From an uncultured Ruminococcus sp. (GTDB lineage Bacteria > Bacillota > Clostridia > RUG12999): a DNA stretch of 64,000 bases. A program made the position numbers and the translations under genes. The notes below the pieces were generated by a model that was not told where the DNA came from, did no database searches, and worked only from the letters and a program-made list of their open reading frames with translations. The stretch spans positions 16,754 to 80,753 of the forward strand of contig CACZWD010000016.1 in the NCBI GenBank assembly GCA_902784805.1. Reading direction: 5' to 3'. Positions 46,775 to 56,035 of the stretch are shown one piece after another (within the stretch, counting starts at the first letter, position 1; every line of letters starts with the position of its first letter).

Positions 46775-46875
46775 AACCGAATATGGACGCAGGGGAGCTG
46801 TTTTTTACGGCTGAGAGGAAGCTTTAAGCTTCGACCCTTTAACCTGATGTGGATAATGCCAACGTAGGGAAAAGT
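46775..46875 (+). ncRNA. TPP (THI-box) riboswitch
   Basis: cagggg-agc...ggctgagag...gaccctttaacctgatgtggataatgccaacgtaggga matches the conserved THI-element core (CUGAGA; ACCUGAU..GGAUAAUGCC). Confidence 0.85.
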
Positions 46876-46946
46876 TAAATGCATACGAATTTTAAAACCG
46901 GCATTTAGCAAGTTTTACTTTAAAATGTGTTTGTTTTAAATTGTAA

Positions 46947-47031: not shown

Positions 47032-47694
47032 ATGAACACAAAAACAAACAAACTTGTAGTATCGGCAATGATGTTAGCAATTGCATCAATTCTCTCAATG
47101 CTGAAGCTTTTTGAAATGCCGTTTGGAGGCACAATAACCGTAGCTTCAATGGTTCCTGTTGTGCTTATAGGCTATTTGTACGGTACAAAGCATGGGCTTT
47201 TTTCGGCTTTTGTCTATGGCATTTTGCAGCTTATTTTAGGCGTGGCTACGGGTATAGTTTCACGTATGTTTCTCCCCGGAGATGAGCAGATGGCGCTTGC
47301 CGCCGCGCTTTCAATTTGCCTTTTAGATTATATACTTGCCTGCCTTATGCTCGGTTTCGGCGGTATATTTAAAGATAAATTCGGTAAGCCGGCACTTGAA
47401 ATCGCACTTGGGGCGGTAGTGGCGACAGTTCTTTGCTGGGTTATGCACGTAATATCGGGCTTTATTTTTTACGGCGCGTGGGCGGAATGGTTTTTCTCCG
47501 ACAGTACGGGGCTTTCGCAAATTTCTGCATTTAAAGGCTTCTGCGATTGGGTAATGAATAATATTCACGGCGGAATGCTTGCGCTTTTTTATTCCGCTGT
47601 ATATAATGCGGCGTATATGCTGCCTGAGACAATTATAACGGCGGTTTTTGCTCCGATAATATATATGGCTATAAAAAAATCTGTAAAAAAATAA
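47032..47694 (+). CDS. thiT: thiamine transporter, ECF S-component ThiT/YuaJ family
   Basis: 220-aa six-TM protein directly downstream of the TPP riboswitch, with the N-terminal pattern KLVVSAMMLAIASILS. Confidence 0.8.
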   Translation: MNTKTNKLVVSAMMLAIASILSMLKLFEMPFGGTITVASMVPVVLIGYLYGTKHGLFSAFVYGILQLILGVATGIVSRMFLPGDEQMALAAALSICLLDYILACLMLGFGGIFKDKFGKPALEIALGAVVATVLCWVMHVISGFIFYGAWAEWFFSDSTGLSQISAFKGFCDWVMNNIHGGMLALFYSAVYNAAYMLPETIITAVFAPIIYMAIKKSVKK

Positions 47695-47704
47695 TCAAAA
47701 CCCC

Positions 47705-47733
47705 TTGACAAAACGTAAAATATTGTGTATAAT
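47705..47733 (+). promoter_or_regulatory. sigma-A promoter with extended -10 for the T-box leader
   Basis: ttgaca (47705-10), 17 nt, tgt-tataat (47725-33). Confidence 0.55.
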
Positions 47734-47739
47734 TATTCG

Positions 47740-48037
47740 TAGAATTATAATAAATGCGATGACCGAAAACAAGTAAGCATTTCCTGTACGTTTTCAGAGA
47801 GCTGCCGTTTGGTGCGAGGCAGCAGCGAAAAGATTTGCCGAATACATTTCGAGAGCAGCGCACCGAAAGCATTCCCGCAAGTAGGCTGCGACGGGTGTTC
47901 CCGTTACAGAACTATGGTTTGAAAGAACCTGAAAAGGTCTGCACCGTGAGATGCAGGCGAATTGAGGTGGTACCACGGGTACGGATTTTTAAAATCACCC
48001 GTCCTCTGAAACTATTATCAGAGGACGGGTTTTTGTT
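47740..48037 (+). ncRNA. T-box riboswitch leader, specifier codon UAC (Tyr)
   Basis: Stem I elements: tgcgatga K-turn, AAGUA, AGAGAG bulge, GGUGCGA distal loop, GAA-UAC-A specifier at 47840-47846, and AGAGCA. T-box sequence aattgaggtggtaccacgg (47960-78). Terminator cccgtcctctga...tcagaggacggg plus T-run (47997-48037). Confidence 0.8.
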
Positions 48038-48067
48038 TTGTCCTCAAATGAAAGGAATGGTTTAGGA

Positions 48068-49612
48068 ATGGTTTTGAAGGTAGTATTGTTGTTGGTTTTC
48101 TTTGCGGTTATGGTTGCGGTAGGCGTTGTCTGCCGGAAACAGGCGGCAGATGTAAACGGGTTTGTGCTTGGCGGCAGAAATGTCGGTCCGTGGCTTACGG
48201 CGTTTGCTTACGGTACGTCTTATTTTTCGGCGGTTATTTTTGTAGGCTATGCCGGTCAGTTCGGCTGGCGTTTCGGTATAGCCTCAACATGGATAGGACT
48301 CGGCAACGCGTTTATCGGCTCGCTGCTTGCGTGGGTGGTGCTTGGCAGAAGAACAAGGCTCCAGACACAGCATCTCGGCAGCGCAACGATGCCGGAGTAT
48401 TTCGGAAAAAGATATAACAGCCCTGCGCTTAAAATTTTCGCGTCGGTTATCGTGTTTGTTTTTCTTATTCCTTATACAGCTTCGCTTTACAACGGTCTTT
48501 CGAGGCTTTTTGAAATGGCTTTTCATATTCCGTATGTATGGTGTATAGTTGCGATGTCGGTTCTGACGGGCATTTATGTAATTGCCGGCGGATATATGGC
48601 TACCGCGGTTAATGATTTTATTCAGGGCATAATTATGCTTTTCGGTATTATCGCGATTATTGCGGCGGTGCTTGGTCAGCACGGCGGTTTTATCGGCTCG
48701 CTTACAGAGCTTGCGAAAGTCAGTGACGCGGACGCAGGCAATGTTCCGGGAGTGTTTAATTCCTTTTTCGGACCAAAACCGCTTGACCTTTTGTTTGTTG
48801 TAATACTGACATCGCTCGGCACATGGGGTTTGCCGCAGATGGTACAGAAATTTTACGCTATTAAAAGTGAAAGCGCCATAAACAAAGGTACGGTAATATC
48901 GACCTTTTTTGCTGTTGTTGTTGCGGGCGGCTGCTATTTTCTCGGCGGCTTCGGACGCCTTTTCAGTGATAAAATGGAGGTTGCAAGCGGTGTGCCGGCG
49001 GGCGGATATGACGCGATTGTTCCGACAATGCTTTCAGGTCTTTCCGATATACTTATCGCCGTTGTGGTTATCCTTGTGCTTTCCGCTTCAATGTCAACGC
49101 TTTCGTCACTTGTTTTGACTTCAAGTGCAACGCTTACGCTTGATTTTATAAAAGGAAATATTGTTAAGAATATGAAGCAGAAATCACAGCTTGCCATAAT
49201 GCGAGTTCTGATTGTTTTCTTTATTGCGGTTTCCGCTGTTATAGCTATAATTCAAGCAAACAGCAGTGTGACATTTATTGCTCAGCTTATGGGAATATCG
49301 TGGGGCGCTCTTGCAGGGGCTTTTCTTGCTCCGTTCCTTTACGGGCTGTACTTTAAAGGAGCCACAAAAGCCGCTTGCACCGTGAATTTTGTGTTCGGAG
49401 CAGGTATAATGATACTTAATATGCTGTTTAAGAGCGCATTTCCGCCGATTTTACAGTCTCCGATTAATTGCGGCGTAATCGCTATGGTTGCGGGGCTTGT
49501 TATTGTGCCGGTTGTAAGTGCATTTACCAAAAAACCGGAAAACGCAGATGAAATGTTTGCCTGCTACGAGGTTCCCGTTACCGTTCCGGTTAAGGAAGCA
49601 CTCGGCGAATAA
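48068..49612 (+). CDS. sodium:solute symporter (SSS) family transporter
   Basis: About 514-aa polytopic membrane protein with an SSS-type pattern (GGRNVGPW..A.....S). The ATG at 48068 is preferred over the TTG at 48038, which lies inside the terminator. Confidence 0.75.
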   Translation: MVLKVVLLLVFFAVMVAVGVVCRKQAADVNGFVLGGRNVGPWLTAFAYGTSYFSAVIFVGYAGQFGWRFGIASTWIGLGNAFIGSLLAWVVLGRRTRLQTQHLGSATMPEYFGKRYNSPALKIFASVIVFVFLIPYTASLYNGLSRLFEMAFHIPYVWCIVAMSVLTGIYVIAGGYMATAVNDFIQGIIMLFGIIAIIAAVLGQHGGFIGSLTELAKVSDADAGNVPGVFNSFFGPKPLDLLFVVILTSLGTWGLPQMVQKFYAIKSESAINKGTVISTFFAVVVAGGCYFLGGFGRLFSDKMEVASGVPAGGYDAIVPTMLSGLSDILIAVVVILVLSASMSTLSSLVLTSSATLTLDFIKGNIVKNMKQKSQLAIMRVLIVFFIAVSAVIAIIQANSSVTFIAQLMGISWGALAGAFLAPFLYGLYFKGATKAACTVNFVFGAGIMILNMLFKSAFPPILQSPINCGVIAMVAGLVIVPVVSAFTKKPENADEMFACYEVPVTVPVKEALGE

Positions 49613-49630
49613 GAGCATTTTGGGGGAAAA

Positions 49631-50434
49631 ATGAACATACATAAAATTGATTTTCACACGCATTGTTTTCCTGATAAGCTTGCTGCACGAGCAATTGAAG
49701 CTCTCGGAGCTTGCGCAGGGCTTGTTCCGGTGTCAGACGGCACAGCAGACGGGCTTTTAAACCAAATGAATGAGGGCGGCGTTGATATTGCCGTAGTACT
49801 CGGTATTGCGACAAACGCACATCAGCAAAAATCCGTGAATGATTTTGCTGCGGAGCTTAACAAAAACCCCCATTTTGTAGCCTTCGGCTCTGTTCATCCC
49901 GATGCGCATGACGCAATAGATGAGCTTGAAAGAATTAAGGATATGGGGCTTCTTGGAGTGAAATTTCATCCTGAGTATCAGAAGTTTTATGTTGATGATG
50001 ATAAGATGCGTCCAATATATAAGAAAATTTCGCAGCTTGAATTAATTACGGTGTTTCACGCGGGTGCGGATTATGGCTTTTTGCCGCCTTATCACTGCTT
50101 GCCCATGCATATGGAAAACGCTCTTAAAATGCTTGACACAAAAGTTATTGCGGCGCATTGGGGAGGCGTAATGATGCAGGAGGAGGTATATAAAAGGCTT
50201 TGCGGACTTCCTGTTTATTTTGACACCTCTTTTTCTTACGGAACGACCTGCCTTCAAATGCTTAAAAAAATTGTTCAAAAGCATGGTACGGATAAGCTTC
50301 TTTTCGGTACGGATTCCCCATGGCACGGTCCCGAGGAAGAAAGCAGAGTTATTGAGTTTTTGGAGCTTTCTGAGGAAGAAAAAGAAAAAATATACTATAA
50401 AAATGCGGCAAAACTCCTAAAACTTGACATTTAA
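49631..50434 (+). CDS. amidohydrolase-2 family metal-dependent hydrolase (TIM barrel)
   Basis: The N-terminal IDFHTHCFP motif, plus FH.G and D..W.H patterns. Confidence 0.65.
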   Translation: MNIHKIDFHTHCFPDKLAARAIEALGACAGLVPVSDGTADGLLNQMNEGGVDIAVVLGIATNAHQQKSVNDFAAELNKNPHFVAFGSVHPDAHDAIDELERIKDMGLLGVKFHPEYQKFYVDDDKMRPIYKKISQLELITVFHAGADYGFLPPYHCLPMHMENALKMLDTKVIAAHWGGVMMQEEVYKRLCGLPVYFDTSFSYGTTCLQMLKKIVQKHGTDKLLFGTDSPWHGPEEESRVIEFLELSEEEKEKIYYKNAAKLLKLDI

Positions 50435-50435
50435 C

Positions 50436-50464
50436 TTGACAGTTTGACTGAAAATTAATATAAT
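50436..50464 (+). promoter_or_regulatory. sigma-A promoter upstream of the ligase-iorAB genes
   Basis: ttgaca (50436-41), 17 nt, tataat (50459-64). Confidence 0.5.
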
Positions 50465-52193: not shown

Positions 52194-53933
52194 ATGAAAA
52201 AATTAATGCTTGGTAACGCGGCGGTTGCGCGGGGAGCTTATGAAGCCGGCGTAACGGTTGTGTCGTCATATCCCGGTACTCCGAGCACGGAAATCACGGA
52301 GAATATTGTTAAATATCCCGAGATTTACGCTGAGTGGGCGCCGAACGAGAAAGTCGCGGCAGAGGTCGCGGTAGGCGCTTCTATGGCAGGCGCGAGAGCT
52401 ATGTCCGCTTGCAAACACGTAGGGTTTAATGTTATGGCGGACCCTGTTTTTACAATCAGTTATATCGGAACAAACGGCGGTTTGCTTTTTTGCGTTGCCG
52501 ATGACCCGGGTATGCATTCCTCTCAAAACGAGCAGGATTCAAGACATTACGCAAAGGCGGCGAAGCTGCTTATGCTTGAGCCTTCCGATTCTTCGGAATG
52601 TAAAGAATATACAAAGAGAGCCTTTGAGCTTTCCGAAAAGTATGATGTTCCGGCGGTACTTCGTCTTTCGACAAGAGTTTCCCATTCGCAGAGTATGGTA
52701 GAAATCAATGAACGCGAGAATTATGAGCTTAAACCGTATGAAAAAAATATCGCTAAAAATGTTATGATGCCGGCAAATGCCATAAAACGGCATATTGAGG
52801 TTGAGAAACGTATGGAGGCGCTTAAAGAATTTGCCGAAAATACAGAGCTTAATACTGTTGAAATTAACGAGGGCAACATAGGTGTTATAACTTCGGGAAT
52901 TTCTTATATGTACGCGAAAGAAGCGCTTGGAAACCGTGTCAGTTATCTTAAACTCGGTATGGTATATCCGCTTCCCGAAAAGAAAATCCTTGATTTTGCC
53001 GCTAAATTCGATAAGGTATATGTGATTGAAGAGCTTGATCCGTTTTTTGAAGAACATTGCAAAGCTGTAGGGGCGAAAAATATAATAGGCAAGGAAGCGT
53101 TTACTTTGCTTGGCGAATATACGCCCGCTATGATTAAAAAAGCCGTTCTCGGAGAGGACAGACCGGAATTTGATGAGAGTGATGAGCAAATTCCCGCACG
53201 TCCGCCTGTTATGTGCGCAGGCTGTCCGCACAGAGGAACATTTTATGTGCTTAAAAAGCTTGGACTTGTAGTTTCCGGAGATATCGGCTGTTATACTCTC
53301 GGCGCCGTTCAGCCGCTTTCAAGCGTTGACAGCACGATATGTATGGGGGCTTCCGTTTCGGCGGCTCTCGGAATGGCAAAGGCGAGAGGCAAGGAATTTA
53401 ACAAAAAGCTTGTTTCGGTAATCGGCGATTCAACTTTTATACATTCGGGTATTACGGGACTTATTGATATTGTGTATAATAAAGGCGCGAATACGGTTAT
53501 TATCCTTGATAATTCAATAACCGGTATGACAGGACATCAGGATAACCCGACAACAGGATATACAATCCGCAAAGAGGAAACAAAACAGGTAAATCTTATA
53601 GCTCTTTGCAAGGCGGTTGGCGTCGGCAGAATAGTTGTTGCCGACCCGTTTGACGTTAAAAATTTTGAAAAGGTTGTAAAAGAGGAAGTCAGCGCAGATG
53701 AGCCTTCCGTTATTATAGCGCAGCGACCGTGCGCGCTTTTAAAGAAGGTTAAATATACGGGACATTGTACCATTACGGATAAATGTAAAAAATGTAAAAT
53801 GTGTATGAAGCTCGGCTGTCCGGCAATATCAAGTGACGGTGACGGAGTAAAAATAGAACTTAACCAGTGTAACGGCTGCGGACTGTGTGTAAATGTTTGT
53901 CCGTTTGAAGCTATTAAGAAGGAGGAAAAGTAG
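52194..53933 (+). CDS. iorA: indolepyruvate:ferredoxin oxidoreductase alpha subunit
   Basis: 579 aa. N-terminus GNAAVARGAYEAGV...YPGTPSTE, a TPP motif (GDSTFIHSG..NSITGMTGHQ) and a C-terminal 2x[4Fe-4S] domain. Confidence 0.85.
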   Translation: MKKLMLGNAAVARGAYEAGVTVVSSYPGTPSTEITENIVKYPEIYAEWAPNEKVAAEVAVGASMAGARAMSACKHVGFNVMADPVFTISYIGTNGGLLFCVADDPGMHSSQNEQDSRHYAKAAKLLMLEPSDSSECKEYTKRAFELSEKYDVPAVLRLSTRVSHSQSMVEINERENYELKPYEKNIAKNVMMPANAIKRHIEVEKRMEALKEFAENTELNTVEINEGNIGVITSGISYMYAKEALGNRVSYLKLGMVYPLPEKKILDFAAKFDKVYVIEELDPFFEEHCKAVGAKNIIGKEAFTLLGEYTPAMIKKAVLGEDRPEFDESDEQIPARPPVMCAGCPHRGTFYVLKKLGLVVSGDIGCYTLGAVQPLSSVDSTICMGASVSAALGMAKARGKEFNKKLVSVIGDSTFIHSGITGLIDIVYNKGANTVIILDNSITGMTGHQDNPTTGYTIRKEETKQVNLIALCKAVGVGRIVVADPFDVKNFEKVVKEEVSADEPSVIIAQRPCALLKKVKYTGHCTITDKCKKCKMCMKLGCPAISSDGDGVKIELNQCNGCGLCVNVCPFEAIKKEEK

Positions 53934-53935
53934 TT

Positions 53936-54502
53936 ATGGCCAAAAACATTATGATAGTCGGAGTCGGTGGTCAGGGTACTCTTCTTGCCAGCCGGATACT
54001 TGGAAATACCGTTATAAACGAAGGATATGACGTTAAGGTTTCGGAGGTTCATGGTATGAGCCAAAGAGGCGGCAGCGTTGTAACATATGTAAAGTATGGT
54101 GATAAGGTATATTCGCCCATAATTGACCGCGGTGAAGCCGATATTATTCTTGCTTTTGAGACGCTTGAAGCATATCGCGCGCTTCCGTATCTTAAAAAAG
54201 GCGGCTGTATGATAATAAACAACCAAAAAATGAATCCTATGCCCGTCATTACGGGCGCGGCAAAGTATCCTGAAAATATAACCGAAAAAATTTCGTCAAA
54301 AGTCAGGACGGAAATTGTCGATGCGGTTTCGCTTGCGAAAGAAGCGGGGAGTATTAAAGCCGTAAACGTTGTCCTTATCGGCATTATGGCAAAATCGACC
54401 GATATTGCTTATGAAAGATGGGTTGAAACAATCAAACAGACAGTTCCCGAAAAATTTATTGATTTAAATTTAAAAGCGTTTGCTTTGGGATATAATTTGT
54501 AA
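53936..54502 (+). CDS. iorB: indolepyruvate:ferredoxin oxidoreductase beta subunit
   Basis: The GVGGQGTLLASR and HGMSQRGGSV motifs, and it follows iorA directly. Confidence 0.85.
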   Translation: MAKNIMIVGVGGQGTLLASRILGNTVINEGYDVKVSEVHGMSQRGGSVVTYVKYGDKVYSPIIDRGEADIILAFETLEAYRALPYLKKGGCMIINNQKMNPMPVITGAAKYPENITEKISSKVRTEIVDAVSLAKEAGSIKAVNVVLIGIMAKSTDIAYERWVETIKQTVPEKFIDLNLKAFALGYNL

Positions 54503-55087: not shown

Positions 55088-55342
55088 TTATTCAGAAGTC
55101 GGCAAATCAATATCTACCAAAATAAGATCATCTCCTATAATTTTAATTTGATTCCACGCAATTACAATATCTTTCGGCTGCGGTCCCCACGGAAGCCATT
55201 TTCCGCCGCTATTACCGGGCACAACTATTGATTTTAGAACACCCTCCGTGATATCTATCTCAACATCACACACATATCCCAGGCGCCTTCCGTCACGTAT
55301 ATTTATAACCTCTTTGTTTTTAAAATCTGCCGATTTTCTCAT
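55088..55342 (-). CDS. ylmC: YlmC/YmxH-family PRC-barrel sporulation protein
   Basis: 84 aa. KEVINIRDGRRLGYVCDVEIDITEGVLKSIVVPG is the family signature. The start at 55342 has RBS aaaggtg. Confidence 0.8.
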   Translation of the reverse strand: MRKSADFKNKEVINIRDGRRLGYVCDVEIDITEGVLKSIVVPGNSGGKWLPWGPQPKDIVIAWNQIKIIGDDLILVDIDLPTSE

Positions 55343-55483
55343 GTTTTTCAGCACCTTTCTTTTAAATATCAATAATATATATGCAGTAAAACAGTTTTTT
55401 ATGAAAGCAATTTTTATTGTTGACAAAAAATAGTTTTTATTGTATAATTATTTTAAATATAAAAAAGAAAGAGGTAGTTTAAA

Positions 55484-56035
55484 ATGAAAAAATTTGTATG
55501 TCCTGTTTGCGGATATGTTTATGAAGGAAACGAACCGCCGGAAAAATGTCCTCAGTGCGGAGTTGACGGAAGCAGATTTACCGAGGCAGCCGGCGGAAAG
55601 CTTAATTTCGTGTGTGAGCACGTTATAGGCGTTGGCGCAAAAGATAAAATAGATGCTGAAGTGTATGAAGGTCTTAAATCAAACTTTGAGGGAGAATGTT
55701 CGGAGGTTGGTATGTATATCGCTATGAGCCGTCAGGCTATACGCGAAGGCTATCCCGAAATCGGTGAATTTTATATGAGAGCGGCTCTTGAAGAGGCTGA
55801 GCATGCGGCAAAATTTGCCGAGCTTTTAGGAGAAGTTGTAACGCCTTCCACAAAGAAAAATCTTGAGCTTCGCGCAGAAGCTGAGTGCGGTGCGACGGCA
55901 GGCAAGCTTGAGCTTGCGAAACGCGCAAAAGAGCTTGGCTATGACGCGATTCACGACACCGTTCATGAAATGGCAAAAGACGAAGCAAGACACGGCAAGG
56001 GCTTTGAAGGACTTTTGAAGAGGTATTTTGGTTAA
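55484..56035 (+). CDS. reverse rubrerythrin (N-terminal rubredoxin domain, C-terminal di-iron ferritin-like domain)
   Basis: N-terminal CPVCG..CPQCG, then two ExxH motifs (EAEHAAKF; DEARHGK). Confidence 0.8.

Follow-up and report, generated by a model that had tools for sequence, protein, structure and literature searches.

Grundy and Henkin are said to have described, in the leader of the Bacillus subtilis tyrS gene, the founding T-box of tyrosine (UAC) specificity, and Vitreschak et al. reportedly compiled in 2008 an in silico catalogue of T-box-regulated amino-acid transporters. The subject of this work is a T-box leader RNA that reads the same codon and is located in a 64,000-nucleotide stretch of DNA from an uncultured Ruminococcus sp. 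(assembly GCA_902784805.1, contig CACZWD010000016.1; the whole stretch is referred to as the window). The leader precedes a gene for a sodium:solute symporter (SSS family), which is followed by genes for an Amidohydro_2 enzyme, a FadD-like acyl-coenzyme A (CoA) ligase and the two subunits of indolepyruvate:ferredoxin oxidoreductase (IOR). The source assembly comprises 1.67 Mb with a G+C content of 41% and is 84% complete. We propose, with a probability that we put at roughly 60%, that this leader drives a starvation-induced salvage of 4-hydroxyphenylacetate into tyrosine by way of the symporter, the ligase and IOR. The window leader resembles that of tyrS in its K-turn, its specifier loop with UAC followed by a purine, the UGGU-ACCA pairing and the competition between terminator and antiterminator. 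The difference resides in the targets, which are neither an aminoacyl-tRNA synthetase gene nor a biosynthetic gene; in the window they comprise the symporter and Amidohydro_2 genes, to which relatives add those for the CoA ligase and IOR. With the catalogued transporters the locus shares the use of the specifier codon upstream of the gene to infer the cargo; unlike theirs, the likely cargo here is a precursor acid and not an amino acid. The SSS family also includes the phenylacetate permease of Pseudomonas putida.

The 2008 survey of T-box-regulated transporters by Wels et al. (PMC2494555) names the families ABC, APC, DAACS, LIVCS, MFS, NHAC and NSS. A term search of that text did not find 'SSS', 'CoA ligase' or 'oxidoreductase', and it mentions a 'sodium symporter' of unnamed family among genes located far downstream of a T-box. 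Our literature searches brought up no published case in which a T-box controls IOR or the salvage of aryl acids. As for the chemistry, a passage of PMC4162585 that cites Porat 2004 states that Methanococcus maripaludis has, by way of IOR, a second route to aromatic amino acids that is supplied by aryl acids, and a passage of PMC7356843 that cites Allison 1965 states that rumen bacteria form phenylalanine from phenylacetate; p-hydroxyphenylacetate is made from tyrosine in the rumen (PMC5897657). The route that we propose would be similar to those of M. maripaludis and the rumen bacteria in its succession of steps (aryl acetate, CoA ester, reductive carboxylation by IOR to the arylpyruvate, and transamination) and in its coexistence with the de novo shikimate route. 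It would be unlike that of M. maripaludis in being bacterial and in having a dedicated sodium symporter, a FadD-like ligase besides PaaK, and a riboregulator that senses tRNA-Tyr.

The T-box leader

A search with the Rfam model RF00230 matched the window over the whole model (model positions 1-219) with 118.2 bits, the gathering score being 93 (E = 1.5e-25). The elements identified are collected in Table 1. An earlier interpretation, made from the letters of the window and referred to here as the sequence-only reading, had proposed a layout for Stem I with UAC followed by A at the specifier. Every element of this layout was located where it had been placed, both in the sequence and in the covariance-model alignment, which puts UAC and no other codon at the specifier. 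The GAUGA of the K-turn lies inside GCGAUGACC (about 47756-47764), the two strands of the lower Stem I helix, CGAAA and UUUCG, occupy nucleotides 47764-47768 and 47847-47851, and the S-turn of the specifier loop consists of AAGUA (47771-47775) and GAA (47840-47842). The T-box sequence GGUGGUACC encompasses nucleotides 47966-47974, of which 47968-47971 are the UGGU of the bulge. The antiterminator, with its 7-nt bulge, folds with -13 kcal/mol and is weaker than the terminator hairpin (47997-48030; -25.1 kcal/mol, z -7.19), after which comes the U-tract UUUUUGUUUUG. The sequence CCCGUCCUC is common to the 5' arm of the terminator and the 3' strand of the antiterminator, and the two folds are mutually exclusive. 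The position of the leader promoter is conserved among the aligned relatives.

The assembly includes one tRNA-Tyr (C35:333-417). Its anticodon, GUA, is complementary to the UAC of the specifier loop, and its end, ...CCUCUCC-A-CCA, has an encoded CCA preceded by a discriminator A, the resulting ACCA being complementary to the UGGU of the bulge. The discriminator base that the sequence-only reading had deduced from the bulge is therefore the one found in the lone tRNA-Tyr of this genome. Judged from its sequence, this leader belongs to the class I transcriptional T-box attenuators, with specificity for tRNA-Tyr, and the RNA itself is an ordinary, textbook member of RF00230. The assembly has no second Tyr T-box, and no T-box was found in this genome before tyrS (C3:37940-39142) or before the tyrA-type prephenate dehydrogenase gene.

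Leaders of relatives were taken from 80 loci obtained in a search with the symporter, to which five loci (L088, L091, L099, L100 and L101) were added that came from other parts of these genomes or from a class-wide sample. The question, raised in the sequence-only reading, of whether T-box and transporter are also paired in other genomes has a positive answer: a Tyr T-box is found directly upstream of the symporter gene in 15 of the 80 symporter orthologue loci, and in another one (L016) a ligase gene stands between the T-box and the symporter gene. Fifteen of these 16 leaders score 96-126 bits with the Rfam model and the remaining one (L077) 92.8 bits, 14 of the 15 that lie directly before the symporter gene reaching the gathering score. 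The specifier is UAC in all 22 leaders compared, that of the window included, and T94, A95 and C96 are invariant in a 17-sequence alignment of Stem I. The Stem I helices that frame the specifier covary in these 17 leaders, with 99.5% of the cells paired and 9 of the 12 pairs changing on both sides. None of 500 shuffles reached the observed value, and when the structure was slid by 1-3 columns, 25-53% of the cells paired. The invariance of UAC and the covariation of the helices make the assignment to tyrosine, already advanced in the sequence-only reading, a solid one, and indicate that selection acts on the RNA structure of the element.

Genes downstream of the leader

The first two genes behind the leader are not tyrS but, as had been stated in the sequence-only reading, an SSS-family transporter gene and an amidohydrolase gene, both assignments being supported by their Pfam scores (Table 1). 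The symporter scores 164.4 bits with TIGR00813, slightly under the superfamily cut-off of 184. The proline carrier PutP and the pantothenate carrier PanF, which belong to the same SSS/LeuT-type family, are its nearest curated equivalogs, and the scores are far under their cut-offs (PutP, TIGR02121, 189.4 bits against 515.5; PanF, TIGR02119, 137 bits against 328); the protein is an equivalog of neither, and it is under the ActP equivalog cut-off as well. It forms a highly conserved clade of its own, with about 70% identity across Clostridia, Selenomonadaceae and Treponema. Carriers of the orthologue include two cultured strains, Yeguia hominis NSJ-40 (L057) and Ruminococcus sp. JL13D9 (P0078). 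A second clade, 40-52% identical to the window protein, is represented in L099 (G058:C19:35300-41000), where the symporter gene lies between a Tyr (UAC) T-box and ligase-iorA. Since it occurs in this distant clade too, the pairing is older than the 70%-identity clade. We propose that the symporter imports 4-hydroxyphenylacetate or a related aryl acid, a function to which its gene context and regulation point.

The solved relatives nearest to the FadD-like ligase are FadD13, FadD5, feruloyl-CoA synthetase and 4-coumarate-CoA ligase, and this protein is the proposed 4-hydroxyphenylacetate-CoA ligase. Its gene is adjacent to iorA and iorB, that is, IOR and an acid-activating ligase are encoded together, as a route of aryl-acid reductive carboxylation requires. 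The iorA gene of the window is the only one in the assembly according to tblastn. In this genome iorB is followed by a PRC-barrel protein gene (55088-55426, minus strand) and then by a rubrerythrin gene (55484-56035), at the position where relatives have paaK and an ACT gene; the paaK-like ligase and ACT genes of this genome are found on another contig (C17:32536-34205).

Between the amidohydrolase and ligase genes a spacer of 81 nt has been inserted, which holds a consensus promoter and, at its predicted +1, a perfect inverted repeat (Table 1). Neither the promoter nor the repeat is present in the nearest relatives, whose corresponding genes lie 1-27 nt apart, and the promoter is specific to this genome. 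The inverted repeat, which as an RNA hairpin has -21 kcal/mol, could be an operator, a 5' hairpin or stabiliser, or a partial terminator of read-through; no other copies of the palindrome, which would point to a regulon, were found in the genome. Because this insertion splits the operon, tyrosine control in the window is certain for the symporter and amidohydrolase genes only. On the other hand, no canonical terminator was found between the amidohydrolase and ligase genes, and for this reason the ligase and iorAB are probably co-expressed with the symporter, T-box read-through into them being possible in this genome. The unit of symporter plus amidohydrolase envisaged in the sequence-only reading is correct as to the two genes, but the amidohydrolase gene is not the last functionally linked one, as ligase-iorAB, often with paaK, follow in relatives.

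Table 1. Location of the leader, its elements and the downstream genes in the window
Feature	Position	Strand	Evidence or remarks
Sigma-70-type promoter of the leader, TTGACA-17-TATAAT	47705..47733	+	Consensus scan, 12/12 matches; start predicted
T-box leader RNA	47750..48009	+	Rfam RF00230; Stem I, Stem III region and antiterminator all present
Stem I: GAUGA GA/K-turn, lower helix CGAAA/UUUCG, AGUA/GAA specifier loop, AGAGA, distal loop GCUGCC...GGCAGC	47756..47858	+	cmscan alignment
Specifier codon UAC (Tyr), followed by conserved purine A	47843..47846	+	U47843 A47844 C47845 A47846
Antiterminator: helix GAGG...CCUC enclosing 7-nt bulge UGGUACC	47964..48006	+	cmscan alignment, fold
Intrinsic terminator: 13-bp stem with 8-nt loop, followed by UUUUUGUUUUG	47997..48040	+	Competes with antiterminator
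Sodium:solute symporter family protein, 514 aa	48068..49612	+	PF00474, 177.6 bits (cut-off 22.8)
Amidohydro_2 metal-dependent TIM-barrel enzyme, 267 aa	49631..50434	+	PF04909, 88.8 bits (cut-off 26.4); 18 nt after symporter gene
Internal consensus promoter TTGACA-17-TATAAT in 81-nt spacer	50436..50464	+	Consensus scan; right after amidohydrolase stop
Perfect inverted repeat, 15-bp arms, 4-nt loop	50470..50503	+	At predicted +1 of internal promoter
FadD-like acyl-CoA ligase, 547 aa	50525..52168	+	PF00501 and PF13193
IorA, indolepyruvate:ferredoxin oxidoreductase alpha subunit	52194..53933	+	TIGR03336, 733.4 bits (cut-off 650.9)
IorB, indolepyruvate:ferredoxin oxidoreductase beta subunit	53936..54502	+	NF005325, 293.8 bits (cut-off 230)

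Linkage of the symporter, ligase and ior genes in relatives

Gene order was compared across 81 loci, the ligase, iorA, iorB and amidohydrolase genes being counted by tblastn and those for the PaaK-like ligase and the ACT protein by clustering of ORFs. The ligase gene, whose product has 62-85% identity to that of the window, is the commonest neighbor of the symporter gene; it was found in 36 of the 80 symporter loci, within about 6 kb and mostly directly adjacent, with a gap of 23-45 nt in four of them (L050, L053, L063 and L067). Other neighbors are iorA (18 loci), iorB (15), the amidohydrolase gene (19), the PaaK-like ligase gene (12) and the gene for an ACT-pair protein (8). The most complete arrangement is that of genome G165 (L100), where the T-box is followed by symporter, ligase, iorA, iorB and paaK genes in that order; the ligase is 85% identical to that of the window, and about 25-27 nt separate the symporter and ligase genes with no amidohydrolase gene present. 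In eight of nine further genomes of the class sample iorA directly follows the ligase gene, the stretch from the ninth showing no iorA. In four genomes a Tyr T-box is located directly before the ligase gene: L016 (ligase, then symporter), L088 (ligase, then paaK), L091 (ligase) and L101 (ligase, then iorA). For the separate ligase genes of L088 and L091 these T-boxes score 101 and 66.8 bits, respectively.

Co-occurrence was analyzed in a sample of 249 genomes of the same class, 65 of which have an orthologue of the symporter (54-76% identity) and 117 an orthologue of the ligase. The ligase is present in 57 of the 65 symporter-bearing genomes as compared to 60 of the 184 others, which gives an odds ratio of 14.7 and a Fisher's p of 3.6e-15, statistics that ignore phylogeny. 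The metagenome-assembled genomes compared are incomplete. The two genes are adjacent, as read from their coordinates, in at least 32 of the 57 genomes that have both. A genome with T-box and symporter and no IOR was not found among six genomes examined. The regulon that emerges from these arrangements across several families of the class is composed of the symporter, the FadD-like ligase and IorAB, often PaaK, and sometimes the Amidohydro_2 enzyme. The PaaK-like ligase, the ACT protein and a PaaI-like thioesterase that occur in the clusters fit (hydroxy)phenylacetyl-CoA chemistry.

The thioesterase, a hotdog protein of 133 amino acids, is encoded just upstream of the ligase gene in L043, L075 and L085, which are Lachnospiraceae-type clusters with no T-box. 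Its best match is the hydroxyphenylacetyl-CoA thioesterase PaaI (TIGR02286), with 75 bits and under the cut-off. In-frame stops or splits were observed in some relatives, namely a TGA in the ligase gene of G006 (L091, G006:C60), a TAG in the iorA of G002 (C3:25834-27561), and an iorA in two pieces in G006 (C70:2995-4714); they are either errors of the metagenome-assembled genomes or a sign of pathway decay.

Proposed salvage of 4-hydroxyphenylacetate

In the mechanism that we propose, transcription would begin at the leader promoter (47705-47733) and stop by default at the hairpin and U-tract (47997-48040). Uncharged tRNA-Tyr (GUA) would pair through its anticodon with the UAC (47843-47845) of the specifier loop in Stem I and through its free ACCA end with the UGGU (47968-47971), stabilising the antiterminator and letting RNA polymerase read on. 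This read-through would express the symporter and the Amidohydro_2 enzyme and probably also the ligase and iorAB, the latter genes being additionally served in this genome by their own inserted promoter. The symporter would take up 4-hydroxyphenylacetate, which is formed in the fermentation of tyrosine and is common in the gut and the rumen, the FadD-like ligase would convert it to 4-hydroxyphenylacetyl-CoA, and IOR, reversed and with reduced ferredoxin and CO2, would form 4-hydroxyphenylpyruvate, from which an aminotransferase would yield tyrosine. A direction of synthesis and not of breakdown would fit both the AMP-forming ligase and the induction by uncharged tRNA. The sequence-only reading had expected the transporter to import tyrosine or a tyrosine precursor; this expectation stands, and the ties to the acyl-CoA ligase and IorAB favor the precursor. 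Of the substrates listed in that reading for uptake assays, 4-hydroxyphenylacetate is the one to which the context points.

Such a pathway would be a cheap salvage route alongside the de novo pathway, which the organism also has. Since the genes for de novo tyrosine synthesis are present, the aryl-acid system would act as a supplement. Tyrosine auxotrophy was considered and rejected, as chorismate synthase, prephenate dehydratase and prephenate dehydrogenase were all identified. The chorismate synthase and prephenate dehydratase genes are found at positions 1-1604 of the window (C16:16417-18357), about 46 kb from the salvage unit.

The value of the finding is one of function prediction for the genes behind the switch, not of a new mechanism. 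A T-box specifier is among the few sequence features that directly name the amino acid served by a set of genes, and in this case it labels two generically annotated proteins, a symporter that about a quarter to a half of the genomes sampled from the class possess and a CoA ligase possessed by about half of them. It also provides evidence of a regulatory kind that IOR, an enzyme usually regarded as fermentative, would work towards synthesis in many anaerobes of the gut and rumen. If the proposal is true, the genes behind the aryl-acid cross-feeding of rumen bacteria described in the 1960s would have been identified, and the pathway would bear on the fate in gut communities of 4-hydroxyphenylacetate, the precursor of p-cresol.

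Several observations weigh against the proposal. The symporter is nearest by sequence to PutP, an amino-acid carrier, and to PanF, and not to the ActP/MctC branch of acetate and monocarboxylate carriers. The pathway leaves unexplained a requirement for two ligases, one FadD-like and one PaaK-like, and assigns no step to the amidohydrolase. In the window, a promoter and a strong hairpin divide the amidohydrolase gene from the ligase gene, and T-box read-through into ligase-iorAB is therefore a presumption there. The co-occurrence statistics, as mentioned, ignore phylogeny. In six relatives the T-box precedes a symporter gene that has no ligase gene nearby; five of them carry a ligase orthologue elsewhere, and in two (L088 and L091) this separate ligase has a Tyr T-box of its own. 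The sixth, the genome G002, has iorA and no ligase orthologue at E <= 1e-30.

The six relatives with a T-box before the symporter alone, and G002 with its missing ligase, could be accommodated if the symporter imported tyrosine itself as a PutP-like amino-acid:Na+ carrier, its uptake being raised by the T-box when tRNA-Tyr is uncharged, in which case the neighboring ligase and ior genes would belong to general aromatic metabolism and be uninformative on the cargo. The best family scores are those of PutP and PanF (189 and 137 bits, both under the cut-offs), and amino-acid importers are the commonest T-box-regulated transporters (PMC2494555), which agrees with such a function. It would nevertheless leave unexplained the position of the ligase gene next to the symporter gene, seen in 36 of the 80 loci and, among the 57 genomes with both genes, in at least 32, the presence of the ligase in 88% of the symporter-bearing genomes, and the Tyr T-box that the ligase gene has for itself in four genomes. 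Moreover, the import of free tyrosine gives no role to an acid-activating, AMP-forming ligase. We consider direct import of tyrosine unlikely.

The Amidohydro_2 enzyme

The protein called amidohydrolase in the sequence-only reading belongs to the Amidohydro_2 (ACMSD-type) class, the characterised members of which are mostly decarboxylases, hydratases and lactonases, not amide hydrolases. Its AlphaFold2 model (pLDDT, the predicted local distance difference test score, of 95) has a (beta/alpha)8 fold, and the closest folds in the PDB are those of ACMSD-type enzymes, with TM scores of 0.66-0.77 and identities of 15-22%. The matches include gamma-resorcylate (2,6-dihydroxybenzoate) decarboxylase (2DVT), the 5-carboxyvanillate decarboxylase LigW, 2,3-dihydroxybenzoate decarboxylase, ACMSD, LigJ and an uncharacterised protein, BB4693 (3IRS); a search of PDB sequences gave weak C-terminal matches alone. 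Across 13 homologues, residues H9, H11, K111, H113, H143, H176 and D228 show no variation, and five of them (H9, H11, H143, H176 and D228) make up the HxH, His, His, Asp metal-ligand pattern of Amidohydro_2. The protein has in common with the ACMSD-type enzymes this pattern and the TIM-barrel fold, and differs from them in its length (267 amino acids against about 330) and in an identity too low to name a reaction.

The amidohydrolase gene adjoins the symporter gene in about 13 of the 80 loci, and in some of these there is no ligase gene nearby. This is one of the observations that would make the symporter and the amidohydrolase, with no participation of the ligase, the real module of this locus, the cargo being some other tyrosine-yielding compound processed by the Amidohydro_2 enzyme, such as a conjugated or carboxylated hydroxy-aromatic acid, an N-acyl-tyrosine, or 4-hydroxyphenyl-pyruvate or -lactate. 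Loci of this kind are L017, L029, L046, L054, L070 and, from Selenomonadaceae, L040, L045 and L052; in addition, the metal ligands are intact, the nearest folds act on hydroxy-aromatic carboxylates, and in the window it is the two genes symporter-amidohydrolase that the internal promoter parts from ligase-iorAB. Most symporter loci, including 12 of the 15 led by a T-box, are however devoid of the amidohydrolase gene, and because of this absence we regard the enzyme as accessory and not as part of the core. Furthermore, in two loci, L028 and L074, a gap of 1 nt couples its translation to that of the ligase gene, an arrangement that fits a single pathway, and 15-22% identity to characterised enzymes is too low to name a reaction. 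The chances of such a module appear rather small, and the enzyme probably acts, in an accessory role, on the hydroxy-aromatic compound that is imported or on one of its derivatives.

A breakdown of tyrosine, fermented via 4-hydroxyphenylpyruvate and IOR to the acyl-CoA with export of the acid by the symporter behind a decayed or non-canonical T-box, would agree with the best known role of IOR, that of an oxidative enzyme in the fermentation of aromatic amino acids, and with the PaaI-like thioesterase of some clusters, but it is very improbable, given that the T-box has all its parts and is maintained, with covariation, by purifying selection, that a pathway for degrading tyrosine needs the opposite of induction by uncharged tRNA-Tyr, that AMP-forming ligases activate acids, and that SSS proteins are sodium-coupled importers.

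The salvage of 4-hydroxyphenylacetate is then the reading that we prefer. In a wider and more tentative version of it, on which we would not insist, the Tyr specifier would give functions to two very widespread, generically annotated protein families of Clostridia from gut and rumen, those of a Na+/4-hydroxyphenylacetate symporter and an anabolic 4-hydroxyphenylacetate-CoA ligase, with IOR reversed on demand. In the window this module would have been rewired: the uptake and the Amidohydro_2 enzyme, the latter maybe preparing a second, conjugated or carboxylated, hydroxy-aromatic substrate, would be strictly under tyrosine control, and the inserted promoter and a palindromic operator would free ligase-IOR for control of another kind.

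Other T-boxes and the region upstream of the leader

The genome has other T-box leaders. Two of tryptophan (UGG) specificity precede genes for a BMP-type ABC transporter and a TrpB2-like tryptophan synthase beta, respectively, and one of threonine (ACC) specificity precedes thrS. These leaders are located at C19:36026-36278, C21:24964-25188 and C15:24117-24317 (loci L003, L006 and L002). Two near-duplicate leaders, at C12:2491-2746 (minus strand; L004) and C50:593-847 (plus strand; L005), score 86.9 and 79.3 bits, under the gathering score. They precede genes for fusion proteins of 767-794 amino acids in which an HTH_XRE domain and a cupin are joined to an AMP-dependent ligase, and a transposase-like ORF is found after the C50 copy. 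In their specifier loop ...AAAUGACCCAUCC stands in front of the helix, and UGGU forms the bulge; candidates for the codon are AUC (Ile) and CCC (Pro). Were it that of isoleucine, these loci could represent a parallel theme of acid salvage (2-methylbutyrate to isoleucine). The fusion proteins were also considered as the ligase that neighbors the symporter, and were rejected as their identity to it is 22-29%.

Immediately upstream of the leader promoter in the window there is a gene for a ThiT/YuaJ-like thiamine S-component of the energy-coupling factor (ECF) type (47032-47694). It comes after a thiamine pyrophosphate (TPP) riboswitch at positions 46781-46888, which scores 68.1 bits, above the gathering score.

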